Assembly (NCBI GenBank): GCA_034171505.1
Contig: JAXFGC010000004.1
Span: 15,269-79,268 of the forward strand
From: Candidatus Enteromonas sp.
GTDB taxonomy: Bacteria > Bacillota_I > Bacilli_A > RFN20 > CAG-826
Reading direction: 5' to 3'
Length of the DNA: 64,000 nt
Part shown: positions 7,009 through 42,899 of the stretch, one piece after another
Layout: the number at the start of each line of letters is the position of its first letter
How positions within the stretch are numbered: the stretch's first letter is position 1
The notes under the pieces: generated by a model
What the model was told of the DNA's origin: nothing
Databases searched by the model: none
The model's input: only the letters and a program-made list of their open reading frames with translations
Program-made: the position numbers and the translations under genes

Positions 7009-7082
7009 AGGGGCATGGTTCAATGGTAGAACAGCGGTCTCCAAAACCGTTAATGAGGGTTCGATTCCTTCTGCCCCTGCCA
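7009..7082 (+). tRNA. trnW: tRNA-Trp (anticodon CCA)
   Basis: Cloverleaf folds by hand: acceptor AGGGGCA/TGCCCCT, D-stem GTTC/GAAC, anticodon stem GCGGT/ACCGT with loop CTCCAAA, T-arm GAGGG-TTCGATT-CCTTC, discriminator G and an encoded CCA. Confidence 0.9.
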
Positions 7083-7624: not shown

Positions 7625-8299
7625 TAATATAGTTGTCAAAAGGGAAACCTCTTGATAGATATGGTCTGAGGGTAAGACCTAATAAAGAAATCCCAAACGA
7701 AGTTGCTTGGTTATTCCAAGCCTTTTTTATATATGGCAAAACTTGTTGAACTGAGAAAATTATCGGCTCTGTAACTTCTAGCGTGGTTTCATGTGGTTTC
7801 TGAAAATAAATCGCCGAAAACTGTAAACTCGATGTGGGGGTTCCCGAAGGCGGTTCAGGAGTGTGACCTTTATCCGTTGATTGGACCCTATTTTGTCCCA
7901 ATGCAGTTAACGGTCGATCGGAGCGGCCCCTCGGTCCGGCCGAAAACACCGTCGCCAATTTCAAGGAAAGCAAAAATGCGTTAGAATCCATGTAGGTCTC
8001 CTTTCGTTAGTTATGTGACCAACAAAATCATAACAAAGGAGGCCGTTTTTATTGGCAAAAACAGGCCAAAACTGCAACCGACAATGGGGGATGCGAAAAA
8101 TTCATACCACATTAGAAGCAACAGAGGTTTTCATTTCTTGTTCACATTCGGGGTATGTTCGGGACATTTTCATCAACGAATGTCTTGAATTGATTCGACG
8201 GCGGCAGGAGAGAAGGATGACTTACCGGACGAACTATTTCGTTTCACCGCGGTAAAGTGATCTAAATTTTTGACGCCGGATAAGATGCGTAATTATTGA

Positions 8300-37022: not shown

Positions 37023-38141
37023 ATGAAACTATCTTCCCCTCGTTTGGCGCTTACCTACGATGATTTGCTTTTGGTTCCCAAGCATTCGGAGGTGATTCCG
37101 AATGAAGTGGACGTTTCCACTCGTTTATGCCGCGGGATTACCCTGAAATGCCCGATTTTATCCGCGGCGATGGACACCGTATCCGAATCCTCTTTGGCCA
37201 TCGCCCTCGCCCGTGTGGGTGGGCTCGCGATCATCCATAAGAACATGAACATCGAGGACCAGGCAAAGGAAGTCCGAAAGGTCAAAGAAGCCAGTCCATT
37301 GCGCCCATCCGCTTCCGTTGACGAATCCGGACGCTTGCTTGTCGGGGCGGCCCTTGGGGCCAACCCCGAGATGCTGGATCGCGCGAAGGCGTTAATTGAA
37401 TCCGGCGTGGATGTTCTTTGCCTTGATTCCGCGCATGGGGATTCCCAAAACGTGATCGATAAGGTCGCCTTACTCCGTCAAACCTATCCTAGCATCCCCA
37501 TCATCGCGGGCAACATCGTGACTCCGGGGGCCGCGAAGCGTTTGGCGGAAGCGGGCGCGGACGTGGTCAAGGTCGGGATTGGCCCCGGATCCATCTGCAC
37601 CACCCGCGTGGTCGCGGGGGTTGGGGTTCCCCAAGCCACCGCGGTGGATGACGTGGTCCAAGTCGCCAAAGAACTCGGGGTTGGGGTCATCGCCGATGGG
37701 GGAATCCGTTATTCGGGGGACATCGTGAAGGCCCTCGCCTTAGGCGCGAACGCCGTCATGCTGGGTTCCATGCTTGCCCGGGCGGAGGAAGCCCCGGGAG
37801 AAGTCACCGAAATCAACGGGAAGAAGTACAAATCCTATCGCGGCATGGGCTCGTTAAAGGCCATGACCAAAGGAAGCGCGGACCGTTACTTCCAAAGTTC
37901 CAAGGGGAAACTCGTTCCAGAAGGGGTGGAAGCCCTCGTCCCCGTGGAGGGAAGCGTCGAAGACATCATCTACCAAATCGTCGGGGGACTCCGTTCGGGG
38001 ATGGGGTATTGTGGCGCCTCCTCCTTGATGGAACTCGCAGAAAAAGCGGAGTTCGTCCAAATCACCGCCTCGGGGGAAATCGAATCTCATCCCCATGACG
38101 TGACGATGGAACGTTCCGCGCCGAATTACGCGAAAAAGTGA
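37023..38141 (+). CDS. guaB: IMP dehydrogenase lacking the CBS (Bateman) subdomain
   Basis: Catalytic loop [16 protein letters not shown] flap [24 protein letters not shown] (absent in GMP reductase). 372 aa with no CBS pair between ..[19 protein letters not shown] and ..[16 protein letters not shown]. Confidence 0.8.
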
Positions 38142-38259
38142 TCGCTATTGAGGGGAATCTCATCATGGACTCCCCTTTTTTGTTGCCGTGAAAATTCCTA
38201 AAAGACCTATCTTTTATTTCGTAAAAATTATGAGAAGATAATGGGTGGAGGTATCTCGA

Positions 38260-38469
38260 ATGGTATTTCCAAACTTTGCGCACCCGGTCCGCAGGCGCGG
38301 AAGGGGACCCATGCGGTTTCTTTCTATGGCGATCAACTTCGTGTTATTCGTGTTGGTCGTCAAAAAAGTATTGGACAAATTCTTCCGTAGGTGCACGGAG
38401 GGGGTCGCCCCAAACGGCGCATTCCGAGCCGAAAGGCAAAGGAAAAGGCCGCCAAGGCGGCCCCACTAA
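38260..38469 (+). CDS. Possible small membrane protein at the start of the GC-rich foreign block
   Basis: GGTGGAGG lies 8 nt before ATG 38260. One hydrophobic helix MRFLSMAINFVLFVLVV. The 3' end runs into repeat copy A. Speculative. Confidence 0.25.
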   Translation: MVFPNFAHPVRRRGRGPMRFLSMAINFVLFVLVVKKVLDKFFRRCTEGVAPNGAFRAERQRKRPPRRPH

Positions 38470-38508
38470 CATCACTTACAATATAGTCTAATACCTTGCG
38501 TCTGTCAA
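38431..38508. repeat. ~78-bp direct repeat copy A with embedded palindrome GGCCGCCAAGGCGGCC
   Basis: gaaaggcaaaggaaaaggccgccaaggcggccccactaacatcacttacaatatagtctaataccttgcgtctgtcaa. About 90% identical to copy B. Confidence 0.75.
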
Positions 38509-38659
38509 CCGGGGAGAGGGCGGGGCCGTCCCCCGAGGCGACCCTGCCCGCGCATTGTTGGGGGAGAGGGATCCATTTCGTTTTCGCGGGTCGGTCCCGC
38601 AGGCTTTCCGAAGGGGAGGCGCCCTTTCGCGCGCCCCGGCCACAGCGCCCGTTCAAGAT

Positions 38660-38739
38660 GAAAGGCAAAGGAAAAGGCCGCCAAGGCGGCCCTCCCGTAA
38701 CATCACTTATAATATAGCCTAGTACCTTGCGTCTGTCAA
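38660..38739. repeat. ~80-bp direct repeat copy B
   Basis: gaaaggcaaaggaaaaggccgccaaggcggccctcccgtaacatcacttataatatagcctagtaccttgcgtctgtcaa. Confidence 0.75.
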
Positions 38740-38860
38740 TTCAAAAACAAGAAAAAAGCCGTCAAGTGTAACTTGACATGATGATTGCAACAAATGGCGG
38801 ATTGCCCCCGCCTTTTCCTATAATGGGGTCCCCCGCCGCCGGAAAGGAGGACAAACAAAC

Positions 38861-39592
38861 ATGGAAAAGAAAAAGAAAAAGGCGAGGATCAACCGCGACC
38901 AACGCGCCAACATCCAAGCCGCGATCGCCATGGGGAAGACCCTGGCCGAGACCGCGGCCATCATCCGAAGGCCCAGGTCCACCGTCTACCGGGAGGTCTT
39001 GGGCAACGCGGAGGCGAGGGACGGCTCCCATTCCTGCTCGTCCTGCTCCAAGGGGTGCCCGCCGGAGCGCCGCCGCCGCTTCTTCCGGGGGAAATGCCCG
39101 GACTACGAGCAGCGGGACTGCGAGAGGTGGAGCCGCTGGCCCCACGTCTGCAACGGCTGCCCGAAATCCGGCCGCTGCCACCGCCCCAAGAGGTACTACG
39201 ACTGCGTCTCCGCCGACGCCTCCTCGACGGCGAAGCGCTCCGCCGGGCGCTCCCACGGGGCCCTCTCGCCCGAGAAGGTCGCCGAACTCGACGAGAGGGT
39301 CTCGCCCCGGATCAAGAAGGGGCAGTCGATCCACCACATCTACGCGACCGACCCGGCCCTCGGGGCCATCTGCTGCGAGAGGACGGTCCGCCGCTACGTC
39401 TACAAAGGGGCCCTCACGGCGAAGTGCCACGAGCTCGTCCGCTACGTCCGCTTCAAGCGGCAATACGGCCCGGCCAAAGGCCGGAAAAGCGCGGAGGACC
39501 GCAAGAGGTTCCGCGCGGAAAGGGTCCTCGGGAGGACGTTCAGCGACTACCTGGACTGGGTCGCGGACAACCCCCTCGCGAGCCGCTGGCAG
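38861..39592 (+). pseudogene. IS30-family transposase, N-terminal 244 codons (HTH region), truncated by the IS21 insertion
   Basis: RINRDQRANIQAAIAMGKTLAETAAIIRRPRSTVYREVLGN matches the IS30 N-terminal HTH. The frame ends ..SRWQ* exactly at the IS21 boundary. Confidence 0.7.
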
Positions 39593-39688
39593 TGATTATG
39601 GCAAGATAAAAAGCGCCAATTCGGGCAATATAACATTTACCAGTTTTGGCAATGGGCGATAATGTCCCTCCGAAAGGAGGCTTCAGAC

Positions 39689-40897
39689 ATGTCGCTCGAA
39701 TCACACCTTAGGTTCCTGAAGCAAATGAACATCAAGCCAAACTACTCCGCGCTGTCCCGGGAGTTCAAGATGGACAGACACACGATCAAGAAGAAGATGG
39801 AGGGGCTCGACGCCCCTCCAAAGGAGAGAAGGCCTAGGCCTTCGGCGCTCGACCCGCTGGCCGGCGAGATCGCCGCAACCCTCGAGCAGAAAGGCGTCAG
39901 CATCGCGGCCGCCTATTGGTACTTCAAAAACGAGAAGGGGGTGACGTGCTCCTACTCGAACTTCAAGCACTACGCCAGATCCAGGGGGCTTGCCGACGGC
40001 AAGGCGGACCCGACCCCGCATCCGCTGTACGAGACCGCGCCGGGCGAGGTCCTGCAGTGCGACTGGGTCGAGTCGATCACCCTCAAATTGTCCGACGGGA
40101 GCGCGGCGCAGTTCAACCTGTTCTCCGCCACGCTGGCCTACTCGCGGCTCCATTACTTCGAGTTCACGGAGACGAAGACCGAAGGCGCGTTCAAACGCTG
40201 CCTCTGCCATTGCCTCGAATGGCTCGGAGGGGCCCCGAGGAAGGTCCTCACCGACAACATGTCCGCCTTGGTCTCCGTCAACAAAGGCAGGAGATCCGTC
40301 CACCCGACGGTCAGGCAGTTCGCGGCCGACATCGGGGTCGACATAAGGTTCTGCAGGGTGAGGACGCCGCAGACGAAGGGCAAGGACGAGTGCTCCAACA
40401 AATTCGCCAAATGGCTGCTCGCCTACGACGGGAAGCTCGCGTCGACGGAGGAGATAGCCGCTTTGGTCAAAAGGCTCGTCGCCGACGTCAACAACGAGAA
40501 GAACCAGGCCATCGGGGTCCCGCCCTCGATCGCCTTCGGCAAAGAAAAAGAACACCTGTCGCCGCTTCCGCCCGCGAGGATACTGAGGGAATACGAGAGC
40601 TGGTCGCACAGCTGCAAGGTCCCCCAGACGCAGTTGGTCTACTTCCGCAGCGCCAGGTATTCGGTGCCACCAAATCTTATCACGAAAACCGTCCAAATCG
40701 AAGAGGAGGGCGGGATCGTCTACATCTACCACGCCGGGGCGGTCGTCGCCAGGCACGAATCCGTCGCCAAAGGCGTCGCCTACCAGGAGGGCCACCTCAG
40801 GGCCGCGCTCGCCGCGACCTGCGTCGACGAATCGCGCATCGACGCCTACATCGAGACGACGCTCTCCAGGTTCAAGGAGCTGGGAGGCGGGGCATGA
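39689..40897 (+). CDS. istA: IS21-family transposase IstA
   Basis: DDE region (..LQCDW.., ..TDNMSA.., ..TKGKDE..). AAAGGAGG lies 8 nt before ATG 39689; the track start 39662 sits inside the RBS. Confidence 0.85.
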   Translation: MSLESHLRFLKQMNIKPNYSALSREFKMDRHTIKKKMEGLDAPPKERRPRPSALDPLAGEIAATLEQKGVSIAAAYWYFKNEKGVTCSYSNFKHYARSRGLADGKADPTPHPLYETAPGEVLQCDWVESITLKLSDGSAAQFNLFSATLAYSRLHYFEFTETKTEGAFKRCLCHCLEWLGGAPRKVLTDNMSALVSVNKGRRSVHPTVRQFAADIGVDIRFCRVRTPQTKGKDECSNKFAKWLLAYDGKLASTEEIAALVKRLVADVNNEKNQAIGVPPSIAFGKEKEHLSPLPPARILREYESWSHSCKVPQTQLVYFRSARYSVPPNLITKTVQIEEEGGIVYIYHAGAVVARHESVAKGVAYQEGHLRAALAATCVDESRIDAYIETTLSRFKELGGGA

Positions 40898-41646
40898 GCA
40901 CAAACTACGTCAAGCTGCTGAACGCCCTGGACGCGCTGGGCCTCCCCGAGTTCAAGGCGGGGCTCGACAGGGCCGTCGACTCCGTCAGCTCCGGCGCGAT
41001 GACCGTCGTCGACGCGCTTTGGTCGCTCTCGTCGAAGGAGCTCGAGGCCCGGCAGCGGAGGATCGACGACACCATGGTCAAGGTGTCGCACTTCCCGTTT
41101 TGGAAGACGGTCGACGACTACGACTTCTCCTTCCAGCCGCAGCTGAACAGGGACGAGATACTGGCCCTGACCGACCTGAGGTTCATCGAAAGCGCCGGGA
41201 ACGTCGTGTTCCTGGGGACGCCGGGGACCGGCAAGACCCATCTGGCCGTCGCCATCGGGATGGTCGCCGCCAAAAGCAGGTACAGGACCTACTTCATCAC
41301 GTGCAACGACCTGATCGCGGAGCTGAAGAAGGCGAAATCCGAGGGCCTATTGGCCAAGAAGCTGAAATACTACCAATCCTACAGCCTCATGATCATCGAC
41401 GAAGTCGGGTTCCTCCCGATAGAGAAGGGGGACTCGGACCTGCTCTTCCAGCTGATCTCGATGCGCTACGAGAAGAAGAGCACGATCATGACGAGCAACA
41501 AAGGGTTCAACCACTGGGGCGAGGTCTTCGGAGATCCAGCCCTCGCCAACGCCATGGTCGACCGGATTCTGCATCACTGCAAGGTCATCCAGATAGTCGG
41601 CCCATCCTACAGAATGAAAGGAAAGGAGGACCTCTTCAAAGAGTGA
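40894..41646 (+). CDS. istB: IS21-family helper ATPase IstB
   Basis: Walker A FLGTPGTGKTHLAVAIG, Walker B ..LMIIDEVGF... Start overlaps the istA stop (ATGA). Confidence 0.85.
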   Translation: MSTNYVKLLNALDALGLPEFKAGLDRAVDSVSSGAMTVVDALWSLSSKELEARQRRIDDTMVKVSHFPFWKTVDDYDFSFQPQLNRDEILALTDLRFIESAGNVVFLGTPGTGKTHLAVAIGMVAAKSRYRTYFITCNDLIAELKKAKSEGLLAKKLKYYQSYSLMIIDEVGFLPIEKGDSDLLFQLISMRYEKKSTIMTSNKGFNHWGEVFGDPALANAMVDRILHHCKVIQIVGPSYRMKGKEDLFKE

Positions 41647-41706
41647 TTACCGAAACTGGTGAAAAATAAATTGCCCAAAACGGTAAAAATTATCTTGCCT
41701 TTATCA

Positions 41707-42248
41707 GCTGGCAGCTGGACTCCGTCGTCGGCGGGCCCGGCTGCGGGAAGGCGATACTGACGGTGACCAACCCCGAGACGAGGTTCCAGTTCGGAACGCT
41801 CATCCGGTTCGGGAGGGCCGCCGACGTCGACGCGGCCCTCGCCCGGCTGAGGGGCGCCTTGGGCGCCGAGCGCTTCGCCGACGCGTTCGCCTGCTGCCTG
41901 GCCGACAACGGCAGCGAGTTCGCCACCCTCTACGCGGCGGAGGAGATGGGGATCCGGGTGTTCTACACCAACCCCTACAAGTCGACCGACAAAGCCGCCT
42001 GCGAGAGGAACCACGAAATACTAAGGTACGTCATCCCCAAAGGGGGCGACCTGGATTCCCTGACCCAGGCGGACGTGGACTTGGTGTTCTCCCACATCAA
42101 TTCCTACGTCAGGGAATCCAACAAGGACAAAACCCCGTACGATCTCCTGGCCGAGAAGTTCGGGGAGGACTTCCCGGGTCTGCTCGGGGTCAGCCGCGTC
42201 GAAGCGAGCGACGTGACGCTTAAGCCCGAGCTCCTCAAGAAGCCCTAA
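41707..42248 (+). pseudogene. IS30-family transposase, C-terminal DDE part
   Basis: ..CLADNGSEFA.. and ..ACERNHEILRYVIPKG.. are the IS30 D and E regions. The frame is open from the IS21 boundary: ..SWQLDSVVGGPGCGKAILTV.. Confidence 0.7.
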
Positions 42249-42337
42249 AACGCCGCTAGGGCGGCGGGGGAATCCGCAACCGCGGGCCGTTGCAACGACA
42301 TAGTCAAACGCGGCATCGGCCAACTTTCGCGGCGCCC

Positions 42338-42405
42338 AAAATGTACCCCTTCCGGGCGGAAAACTCAACCGAAACGGGGCCCACTGAGCCCGGAAGGGGT
42401 ACATT
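42338..42405. repeat. Perfect 18-bp inverted repeat forming a long stem-loop
   Basis: aatgtaccccttccgggc, a 29-nt loop, then gcccggaaggggtacatt. Confidence 0.65.
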
Positions 42406-42899
42406 CCCGCCCCAAAAAAACCGAAAAAATCAAAACAATCCTAAATTGGAACTATTTTGTTGCATTTTGTCTGTCACTTAACATGAGTTTCGCTTCCCCG
42501 TCCGAACTCGTCCCCCGGGAGGGGAATTTCGAGGCGTCGCTTCCGTCCCCTCCCGGGAAATACGCGGCGACCGAGGACCCTTCGAGGTTCCCCGCGTGGG
42601 CGAGGTGACTTACGAACCAGGCCGCGGAAAAAGAGACTCCAAAGCGAGAGTCCCTAGGAGGGAGATGCCTCCTAGGACGAGGAGATATCGGTTGTGGCAG
42701 GTCATTCCTCTTCGTTTCATGGGCAACATTTCCCCTCCCAACTTGGCGAAATACCGATTCTTTGAAAAATTCTTTTATCTTTTCTTTTCGTTTTAAAATC
42801 AAAAAGAAAGGGGGCATATATGCGAATTCATCCCCCTTTCGATTCGAAAACCCTCCATTTTATCCCTGACTATGTAAAAAGGACTCCCGAAGGAATCCT

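Follow-up and report, generated by a model that had tools for sequence, protein, structure and literature searches.

Two open reading frames (ORFs) of an uncultured bacterium, both deposited as hypothetical proteins, lie on either side of a pair of transposition genes, and the locus raises the question of whether they are the halves of one gene that was split by a second mobile element. The locus lies in a 64,000-nucleotide stretch of Candidatus Enteromonas sp. (assembly GCA_034171505.1, contig JAXFGC010000004.1), which we call the window and whose positions are used throughout. The source is a metagenome-assembled genome (MAG), with both fragments on one 83-kb contig, and the organism is, as we take it, an uncultured gut bacterium of the RF39 lineage. 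Our analysis indicates that the region is a nested pair, an IS21-family insertion sequence (IS) within the transposase gene of an IS30-family element, and we put the probability of this reading at roughly 93%. The composite block occupies 38767..42483 on the plus strand (3,717 bp). Its IS30 portion comprises 1,595 bp (38767-39592 plus 41715-42483), and the IS21 element comprises 2,114 bp with 5'-TG...CA-3' ends (39593..41706, plus strand).

The junctions were established by reading the sequence and by script. The IS21 element starts with TGATTATGGCAAGATAA at 39593 and ends with TTATCTTGCCTTTATCA at 41706, and an 8-bp sequence, GCTGGCAG, abuts both ends directly, with no intervening bases (39585..39592 on the left and 41707..41714 on the right). 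The 5' transposase fragment, taken from the ORF list (38861..39595, plus strand; 244 residues, identical to MDY5440703.1), contains a putative helix-turn-helix (HTH), an eight-Cys region, and a second DNA-binding region. It ends ...ASRWQ, exactly where the first-pass annotation had placed the meeting point of the IS30 N terminus with the IS21 element, and its TGA stop consists of the first three bases of the insert. The 3' fragment (41715..42248, plus strand) is the in-frame continuation and holds the entire DDE domain, beginning LDSVV with D246; the ORF annotated for it uses a GTG start at 41763 and encodes 161 residues, identical to MDY5440706.1. Fusion of 38861-39592 with 41715-42248 by script yields a single 421-residue ORF. 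The insertion point falls between codons Q244 and L245, one codon ahead of the first catalytic Asp, D246.

Uninterrupted relatives show what the gene looks like without the insert. A protein database search with the reconstituted sequence returned an intact 421-residue transposase (P0001), 99% identical over 100% of the query, and the window copy differs from all intact copies by two private substitutions, W76R and L276F. P0001 and two further 99%-identical proteins (P0123 and P0124) are encoded on eleven contigs (L037 to L047) that carry an uninterrupted 1,595-bp element. These contigs match window segments 38767-39592 and 41707-42483 without gaps across the junction, at 99.7 to 99.8% identity, and the two segments overlap by exactly the 8-mer. 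As the intact element holds GCTGGCAG only once, the IS21 insertion must have duplicated it. The earlier claim that an IS21 element splits an IS30 transposase gene with a precise 8-bp duplication is thus borne out by sequence reading, script, and 11 uninterrupted copies, as is its statement that removing the insert and one duplicate in silico restores a continuous frame, here of 421 codons and 99% identical to intact transposases. A metagenome contig from sample SRR21357834 (L003) has a right junction identical to that of the window.

A reading in which each IS30 half is a separate partial copy or a decayed remnant and an IS21 element happens to lie between them, with the identity of the 8-mers a coincidence, was a possibility a priori, and GCTGGCAG does occur twice in the 64-kb window, which as a bare count is about the chance expectation. 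However, the 8-mers abut IS21 ends that are fixed independently by 10 other copies of that element, so the relevant probability of a chance match is 4^-8, or ~1.5e-5. The joined halves also match intact proteins over their full length, and their DNA aligns without gaps to 11 intact elements in which the 8-mer is single. The intact-protein match and the gapless alignments already refute coincident remnants, and we give them next to no credence. We therefore return to insertion of one element into the other.

The inner element has the organization of an IS21-family member. Its ends read TGATTATGGCAAGATAA and TGATAAAGGCAAGATAA and form a 61-nucleotide (nt) imperfect inverted repeat (39593..39653 on the plus strand and 41646..41706 on the minus strand, from a repeat search and end comparison), identical at 15/17 terminal and 43/61 overall positions. 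Three GGYAA repeats lie at the same positions (8, 32, and 56) of both ends and are candidate IstA-binding motifs, and the 17-nt terminal repeat is confined within the window to the two element ends (0.08 occurrences expected). Upstream of istA, a consensus scan finds a putative promoter, TTTACC-16-GATAAT, with 9/12 matches (39636..39663, plus strand). The istA gene (39689..40897, plus strand; start as used by gene callers) encodes a 402-residue DDE transposase that scores 194 bits against NCBIfam transpos_IS21 (NF033546; cutoff, 160), matches Pfam rve and Mu-transpos_C_2, and aligns over residues 18-368 with IS5376 IstA (PDB 8B4H; E=1.8e-29). The istB gene (40894..41646, plus strand), whose start overlaps the istA stop as ATGA at 40894-40897, encodes a 250-residue AAA+ helper ATPase with Walker A (GTPGTGKT) and Walker B (IIDE) motifs. 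It scores 243 bits against Pfam IstB_IS21 (PF01695) and 259 bits against NCBIfam IS21_help_AAA (NF038214; cutoff, 200), and residues 32-244 align with IS5376 IstB (PDB 8Q3W; E=1.6e-57).

An exact look-up of IstB led to ten metagenome contigs (L001 to L010) carrying the same 2,114 bp at 99.3 to 100% identity. Their flanks turn unrelated exactly beyond TGAT...ATCA and differ from contig to contig, and one copy (L008) has an independent 8-bp duplication, GTGGAGGG. Judged from these near-identical copies in different flanks, one with its own duplication, the element has moved recently. The suggestion that the IS21 copy is intact and possibly active is accordingly strengthened, with at least 10 flanking contexts on record. 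None of the ten contigs shows a junction of abutted IS21 ends. We also note that the left flank of L003 (361-400) and the right flank of L004 (2460-2489) share TCAAAGAGA adjoining the IS21 ends; if both derive from the same insertion, sampled twice, a duplication of 9 bp rather than 8 bp is implied there.

For the outer element, the reconstituted 421-residue protein scores 90.7 bits against NCBIfam transpos_IS30 (NF033563; cutoff, 80) over residues 110-375. With this, both family assignments made in the first-pass annotation, IS21 from istA/istB and IS30 from the split transposase, are supported by profile matches above cutoff, from NCBIfam for both families and from Pfam for IS21. Beyond the three 99%-identical proteins there are >1,600 further relatives, the nearest being 56% identical, and two relatives are named "IS30 family transposase" by the Joint Genome Institute (JGI). 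Among species-representative genomes the best relatives are 30 to 39% identical, with no intact copy there, and a sequence search found no relative in PDB. In an alignment of 121 sequences (the reconstituted protein and 120 relatives), D246, D308, and E341 are invariant, the latter two being 33 positions apart. An AlphaFold model of P0001 (predicted local distance difference test score, 86.8) has a C-terminal half that Foldseek matches to the catalytic cores of retroviral integrases (probability, 1.0; E ~1e-5). A putative N-terminal HTH is suggested by the precomputed PF13936 matches of most relatives and by three modeled helices at residues 12-49.

The same alignment has eight invariant Cys residues (C59, C62, C66, C87, C97, C100, C106, and C115). 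They make up a module at residues 59-115 (window 39035-39205), between the first putative HTH and the remaining DNA-binding half, and the module probably binds metal. A literature search for a cysteine-rich IS30 subfamily found nothing relevant.

The intact IS30 element is 1,595 bp with one 1,266-bp ORF, and its ends are fixed by the 11 copies, whose flanks diverge outside TGTAAC.../...TTAACA. The left inverted repeat, TGTAACTTGACATGATGATTGCAACAAA (38767..38794, plus strand), is identical at 19/28 positions to the reverse complement of the right end, TGTTAAGTGACAGACAAAATGCAACAAA (42456..42483, minus strand); these imperfect 28-bp repeats both begin TGT. The block limits proposed earlier, 38771 and 42484, were off by 4 and 1 bases, the actual limits being 38767 (TGTAAC...) and 42483 (...TTAACA), and the right limit is confirmed by a related contig (L048) in which homology stops at 42483/42484. 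A repeat search also finds, in the 3' untranslated part downstream of the transposase stop, an inverted repeat (42340..42405) whose 18-nt arms match perfectly around a 30-nt loop; it is conserved in intact IS30 copies.

Two of the contigs with intact IS30 copies close on themselves, right end to left end (seen at L037 1-160 and L041 1-50). L037, from sample SRR11413592, is 1,627 bp long (1,595 + 2 + a 30-nt assembler overlap) and joins ...TTAACA-TC-TGTAAC..., while L041, from sample SRR11413589, is 1,628 bp long (1,595 + 3 + a 30-nt overlap) and joins ...TTAACA-GAG-TGTAAC... Abutted ends with a spacer of ~2 bp are a hallmark of the circular and tandem-dimer, (IS30)2, intermediates of IS30. The junctions are consistent with transposon circles or with head-to-tail dimers or tandem copies, which look alike in such data. 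Because they match known IS30 intermediates, the IS30-type element appears to be active in some populations. Where the IS30 ends abut, inspection by eye revealed no convincing -35/-10 pair spanning the junction.

The data demonstrate where the two elements begin and end, that the 8-mer was duplicated, which families the three proteins belong to, that intact IS30 copies exist, and that both elements are mobile in related populations. From there we infer an order of events, a biochemical mechanism, and a loss of IS30 function. The 1,595-bp IS30-family element would have been resident first, and the 2,114-bp IS21-family element would later have transposed into its transposase gene. By analogy with IS21 and IS5376, the IstA DDE transposase, with the IstB AAA+ ATPase as its helper, would have cut the two target strands at points 8 bp apart, and repair of these staggered ends would have duplicated GCTGGCAG. 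The insertion would part the N-terminal DNA-binding portion from the entire catalytic domain, and a copy severed in this way would be unable to make transposase, its intact ends being usable in trans at most.

The window copy is one of several interrupted IS30 elements. IS21 lies inside IS30 at four sites, corresponding to window positions 39054, 39322, 39592, and 41965; in L001 it lies between IS30 positions 39054 and 39322, and in L004 it follows 41965. An IS3-family element (a 334-residue rve transposase; end ...GTTGACTAGTGCA) interrupts other IS30 copies (L052 417-1561 and L053 1-453) at points equivalent to window positions 39182 and 41814. Does IS21 then actively prefer IS30 DNA, with IstB/IstA recognizing some IS30 feature? 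That 4 of at most ~15 distinct IS21 junction sites, on ten contigs of which some are chimeric, fall in a 1.6-kb element speaks for such a preference. However, the sample is small, the four sites (TCCAAGGG, GCAGTCGA, GCTGGCAG, and GTGTTCTA) have no common motif and are scattered over the whole IS30 element, and the interruption of IS30 by an unrelated IS3-family element fits better with a compact genome keeping insertions that do no harm. We consider an active preference unlikely. More doubtful still is the broader proposal in which IS30 is a preferred landing site through real target selection, for example by IstB recognizing transposase-bound or structurally unusual IS30 DNA. The subfamily's uncharacterized, probably metal-binding eight-Cys module is an independent point of possible novelty. 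Given the lack of a common motif among the sites and the involvement of two unrelated IS types, we favor retention over specific targeting, with IS30 copies acting as harmless landing pads.

Several observations weigh against the nested reading, in particular against its placement in the chromosome. On the protein side, Pfam rve stays below threshold on the reconstituted IS30 protein, and Pfam HTH_38 reaches 20.5 bits, under its cutoff of 27; because Pfam gives only this subthreshold HTH_38 and no rve match, the protein is rated a divergent member of the IS30 family. On the DNA side, the window IS30 copy is not itself flanked by a 2- to 3-bp target duplication (AAG precedes it and TGA follows), and a scan of metagenome contigs found no independent contig with the left IS30/IS21 junction, nor is the 244-residue fragment on record in an exact look-up. 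In a strain with 99.1% identity, represented by L048, the sequence beyond the stop at 42483/42484 bears no relation to either IS30 or the left flank of the window. Finally, with a MAG as source and both elements multicopy, the assembly cannot prove which chromosomal IS30 copy carries IS21.

Recombination between copies or chimeric assembly may account for the missing IS30 duplication, and no matching short duplication flanks the intact copies in L038 to L040 either (AGG and GCG). The absence makes us less confident of the outer context but leaves the assignment to the IS30 family untouched. Taken with the divergence of L048, it points to a rearrangement by recombined IS30 copies or to an assembly join through a collapsed repeat. 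In L048 itself, the 92 bp beyond the divergence point (2689-2780) match no other sequence retrieved for comparison.

Such a join would make the chromosomal placement an assembly artifact, in which IS21-in-IS30 junctions that are real somewhere in the population were stitched between a guaB-like gene upstream and ABC-transporter genes downstream, through collapsed repeats; the nested element would then lie elsewhere, or its two flanks would not be truly adjacent. The absent 2- to 3-bp duplication and the unrelated L048 sequence left of 42484 speak for this explanation, same-strain metagenome contigs break at a repeat unit near 38461 (L051), and IS21 contigs L001, L003, L004, and L007 visibly combine flanks from different sites. 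However, the inner junctions share an 8-bp duplication that binds them to one and the same insertion, the 83-kb contig was deposited as a single piece, and recombination between two IS30 copies explains the missing duplication and the different neighbor equally well. We regard a misplaced element as improbable, and the doubt about placement is confined to the outer context, leaving the nested pair itself in place.

No empty IS30 site was recovered: a look-up with the ABC ATPase gave L048, with its unrelated left neighbor, and the sole contig from a look-up with the guaB-like gene, L051, ends at the repeat unit. The metagenome contig scan found no match to the left flank of IS30.

The gene upstream of the block encodes a guaB-like inosine monophosphate (IMP) dehydrogenase, and sample SRR21357834, the source of L003, contains an identical guaB-like gene. 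On the downstream side are genes for a membrane protein and for an oligopeptide-type ATP-binding cassette (ABC) ATPase. The claim that the block is richer in GC than its surroundings holds against the window mean (64.0% for IS30 and 59.3% for IS21 versus 52.5%), and GC at third codon positions (GC3) is 0.87 to 0.93 in the IS30/IS21 block versus 0.68 to 0.75 in adjoining genes. It fails for the comparators that had been cited, 38500-38650 and 42500-42600, which have 72% and 69% GC. The corresponding stretches beside IS30, 38509-38659 and 42484-42660, have many short self-complementary runs and no convincing ORF.

The repeat unit at which L051 ends is ~78 bp long and is present twice directly to the left of IS30 (38431-38508 and 38660-38739). 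Each unit carries, on the minus strand, a near-consensus promoter, TTGACA-17-TATATT (11/12), followed within ~40 nt by a GC-rich hairpin and a T-rich tail. The break of same-strain contigs at this unit suggests that it is multicopy. With Rfam at gathering thresholds, the whole window yields only a tRNA, and in E-value mode 38100-38870 yields only weak, chance-level matches to hairpins, placing the repeat units in no known RNA family. The left GC-rich stretch beside IS30 likewise matches no RNA family, and the right one was covered by the whole-window search at gathering thresholds. The first unit forms part of a 320-bp module (38175-38494) together with a small ORF (ATG at 38260; 69 residues; good ribosome-binding site; no Pfam match). 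Contig L002 holds the module at 94.7% identity (285-603), downstream of a thrS-like gene instead of the guaB-like gene, with the IS21 element inserted in the module's repeat unit. The module may itself be repeated or mobile sequence.

Elsewhere in the window, ~210 bp within 7765-8126 are 75% identical to L038 1898-2111, directly upstream of an ISL3-family transposase gene, a gene that adjoins uninterrupted IS30 copies in L038 and L039. The window has no intact ISL3 gene at 7765-8126, and a tRNA gene lies nearby (7009-7079). The segment may be an IS remnant.

The nested insertion is real and is an ordinary event for mobile DNA, one that raises no new question about transposition. Its value lies first in annotation, since the entries MDY5440703.1 and MDY5440706.1, both labeled "hypothetical protein" by NCBI, are parts of one disrupted transposase gene. 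Two ISs with exact ends are now defined in Candidatus Enteromonas, both mobile now or recently in gut metagenomes, and the genome assembly in this repeat-rich region is to be treated with caution. By sequence comparison, both elements appear to be previously undescribed members of known families, as a search of a plasmid collection found no close relative of either and the species-representative genomes hold none.

How do the two elements compare with known systems? The IS21 family, with IS21 of plasmid R68.45 as its prototype, is defined by istA and istB, TG...CA ends with subterminal repeats, and a target duplication of 4 to 8 bp, and its members transpose in an IstA/IstB-dependent manner through a reactive junction of abutted ends. 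We take IS5376 of Geobacillus stearothermophilus to be the structurally characterized member (PDB 8B4H, 8Q4D, 8Q3W, and 5BQ5). The element described here resembles IS21 and IS5376 in its istA (HTH, DDE, and Mu-transposase-C-like parts) and istB (AAA+ ATPase) with overlapping stop and start, its TG...CA termini, its multiple subterminal repeats at both ends, its length of ~2.1 kb, and its 8-bp duplication. It differs in that the closest match among annotated DNA of the plasmid collection has ~65% identity, over part of istB only, and in its host, an uncultured and presumably RF39-type gut bacterium; the site pieced together from two samples (L003 left, L004 right) would add a 9-bp duplication.

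Members of the IS30 family, whose prototype is IS30 of Escherichia coli, have a single ORF, a length of 1.0 to 2.5 kb, inverted repeats of 20 to 30 bp, and a 2- to 3-bp target duplication. Here too, one long transposase ORF fills the element, the imperfect inverted repeats begin with TGT, and the transposase has a putative N-terminal HTH and a D308-E341 spacing of 33 followed by an N-H-E...R-Y...P-K motif, while the right-end/left-end junctions with 2- to 3-bp spacers recall the well-established IS30 circles and dimers. In contrast, the window copy lacks a flanking 2- to 3-bp duplication, and the subfamily is divergent, scoring only 90.7 bits (cutoff, 80), with no Pfam rve match and no PDB relative by sequence. 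Its transposase is also set apart by the eight invariant Cys residues, which, to our knowledge, canonical IS30 transposase lacks. As in nested IS insertions generally, a younger IS sits in an older one with a clean duplication, and in silico excision restores the frame; what differs is that the same IS30 has been a target several times, at four positions for IS21 and at two for an IS3-type element, a difference in number and not in principle.

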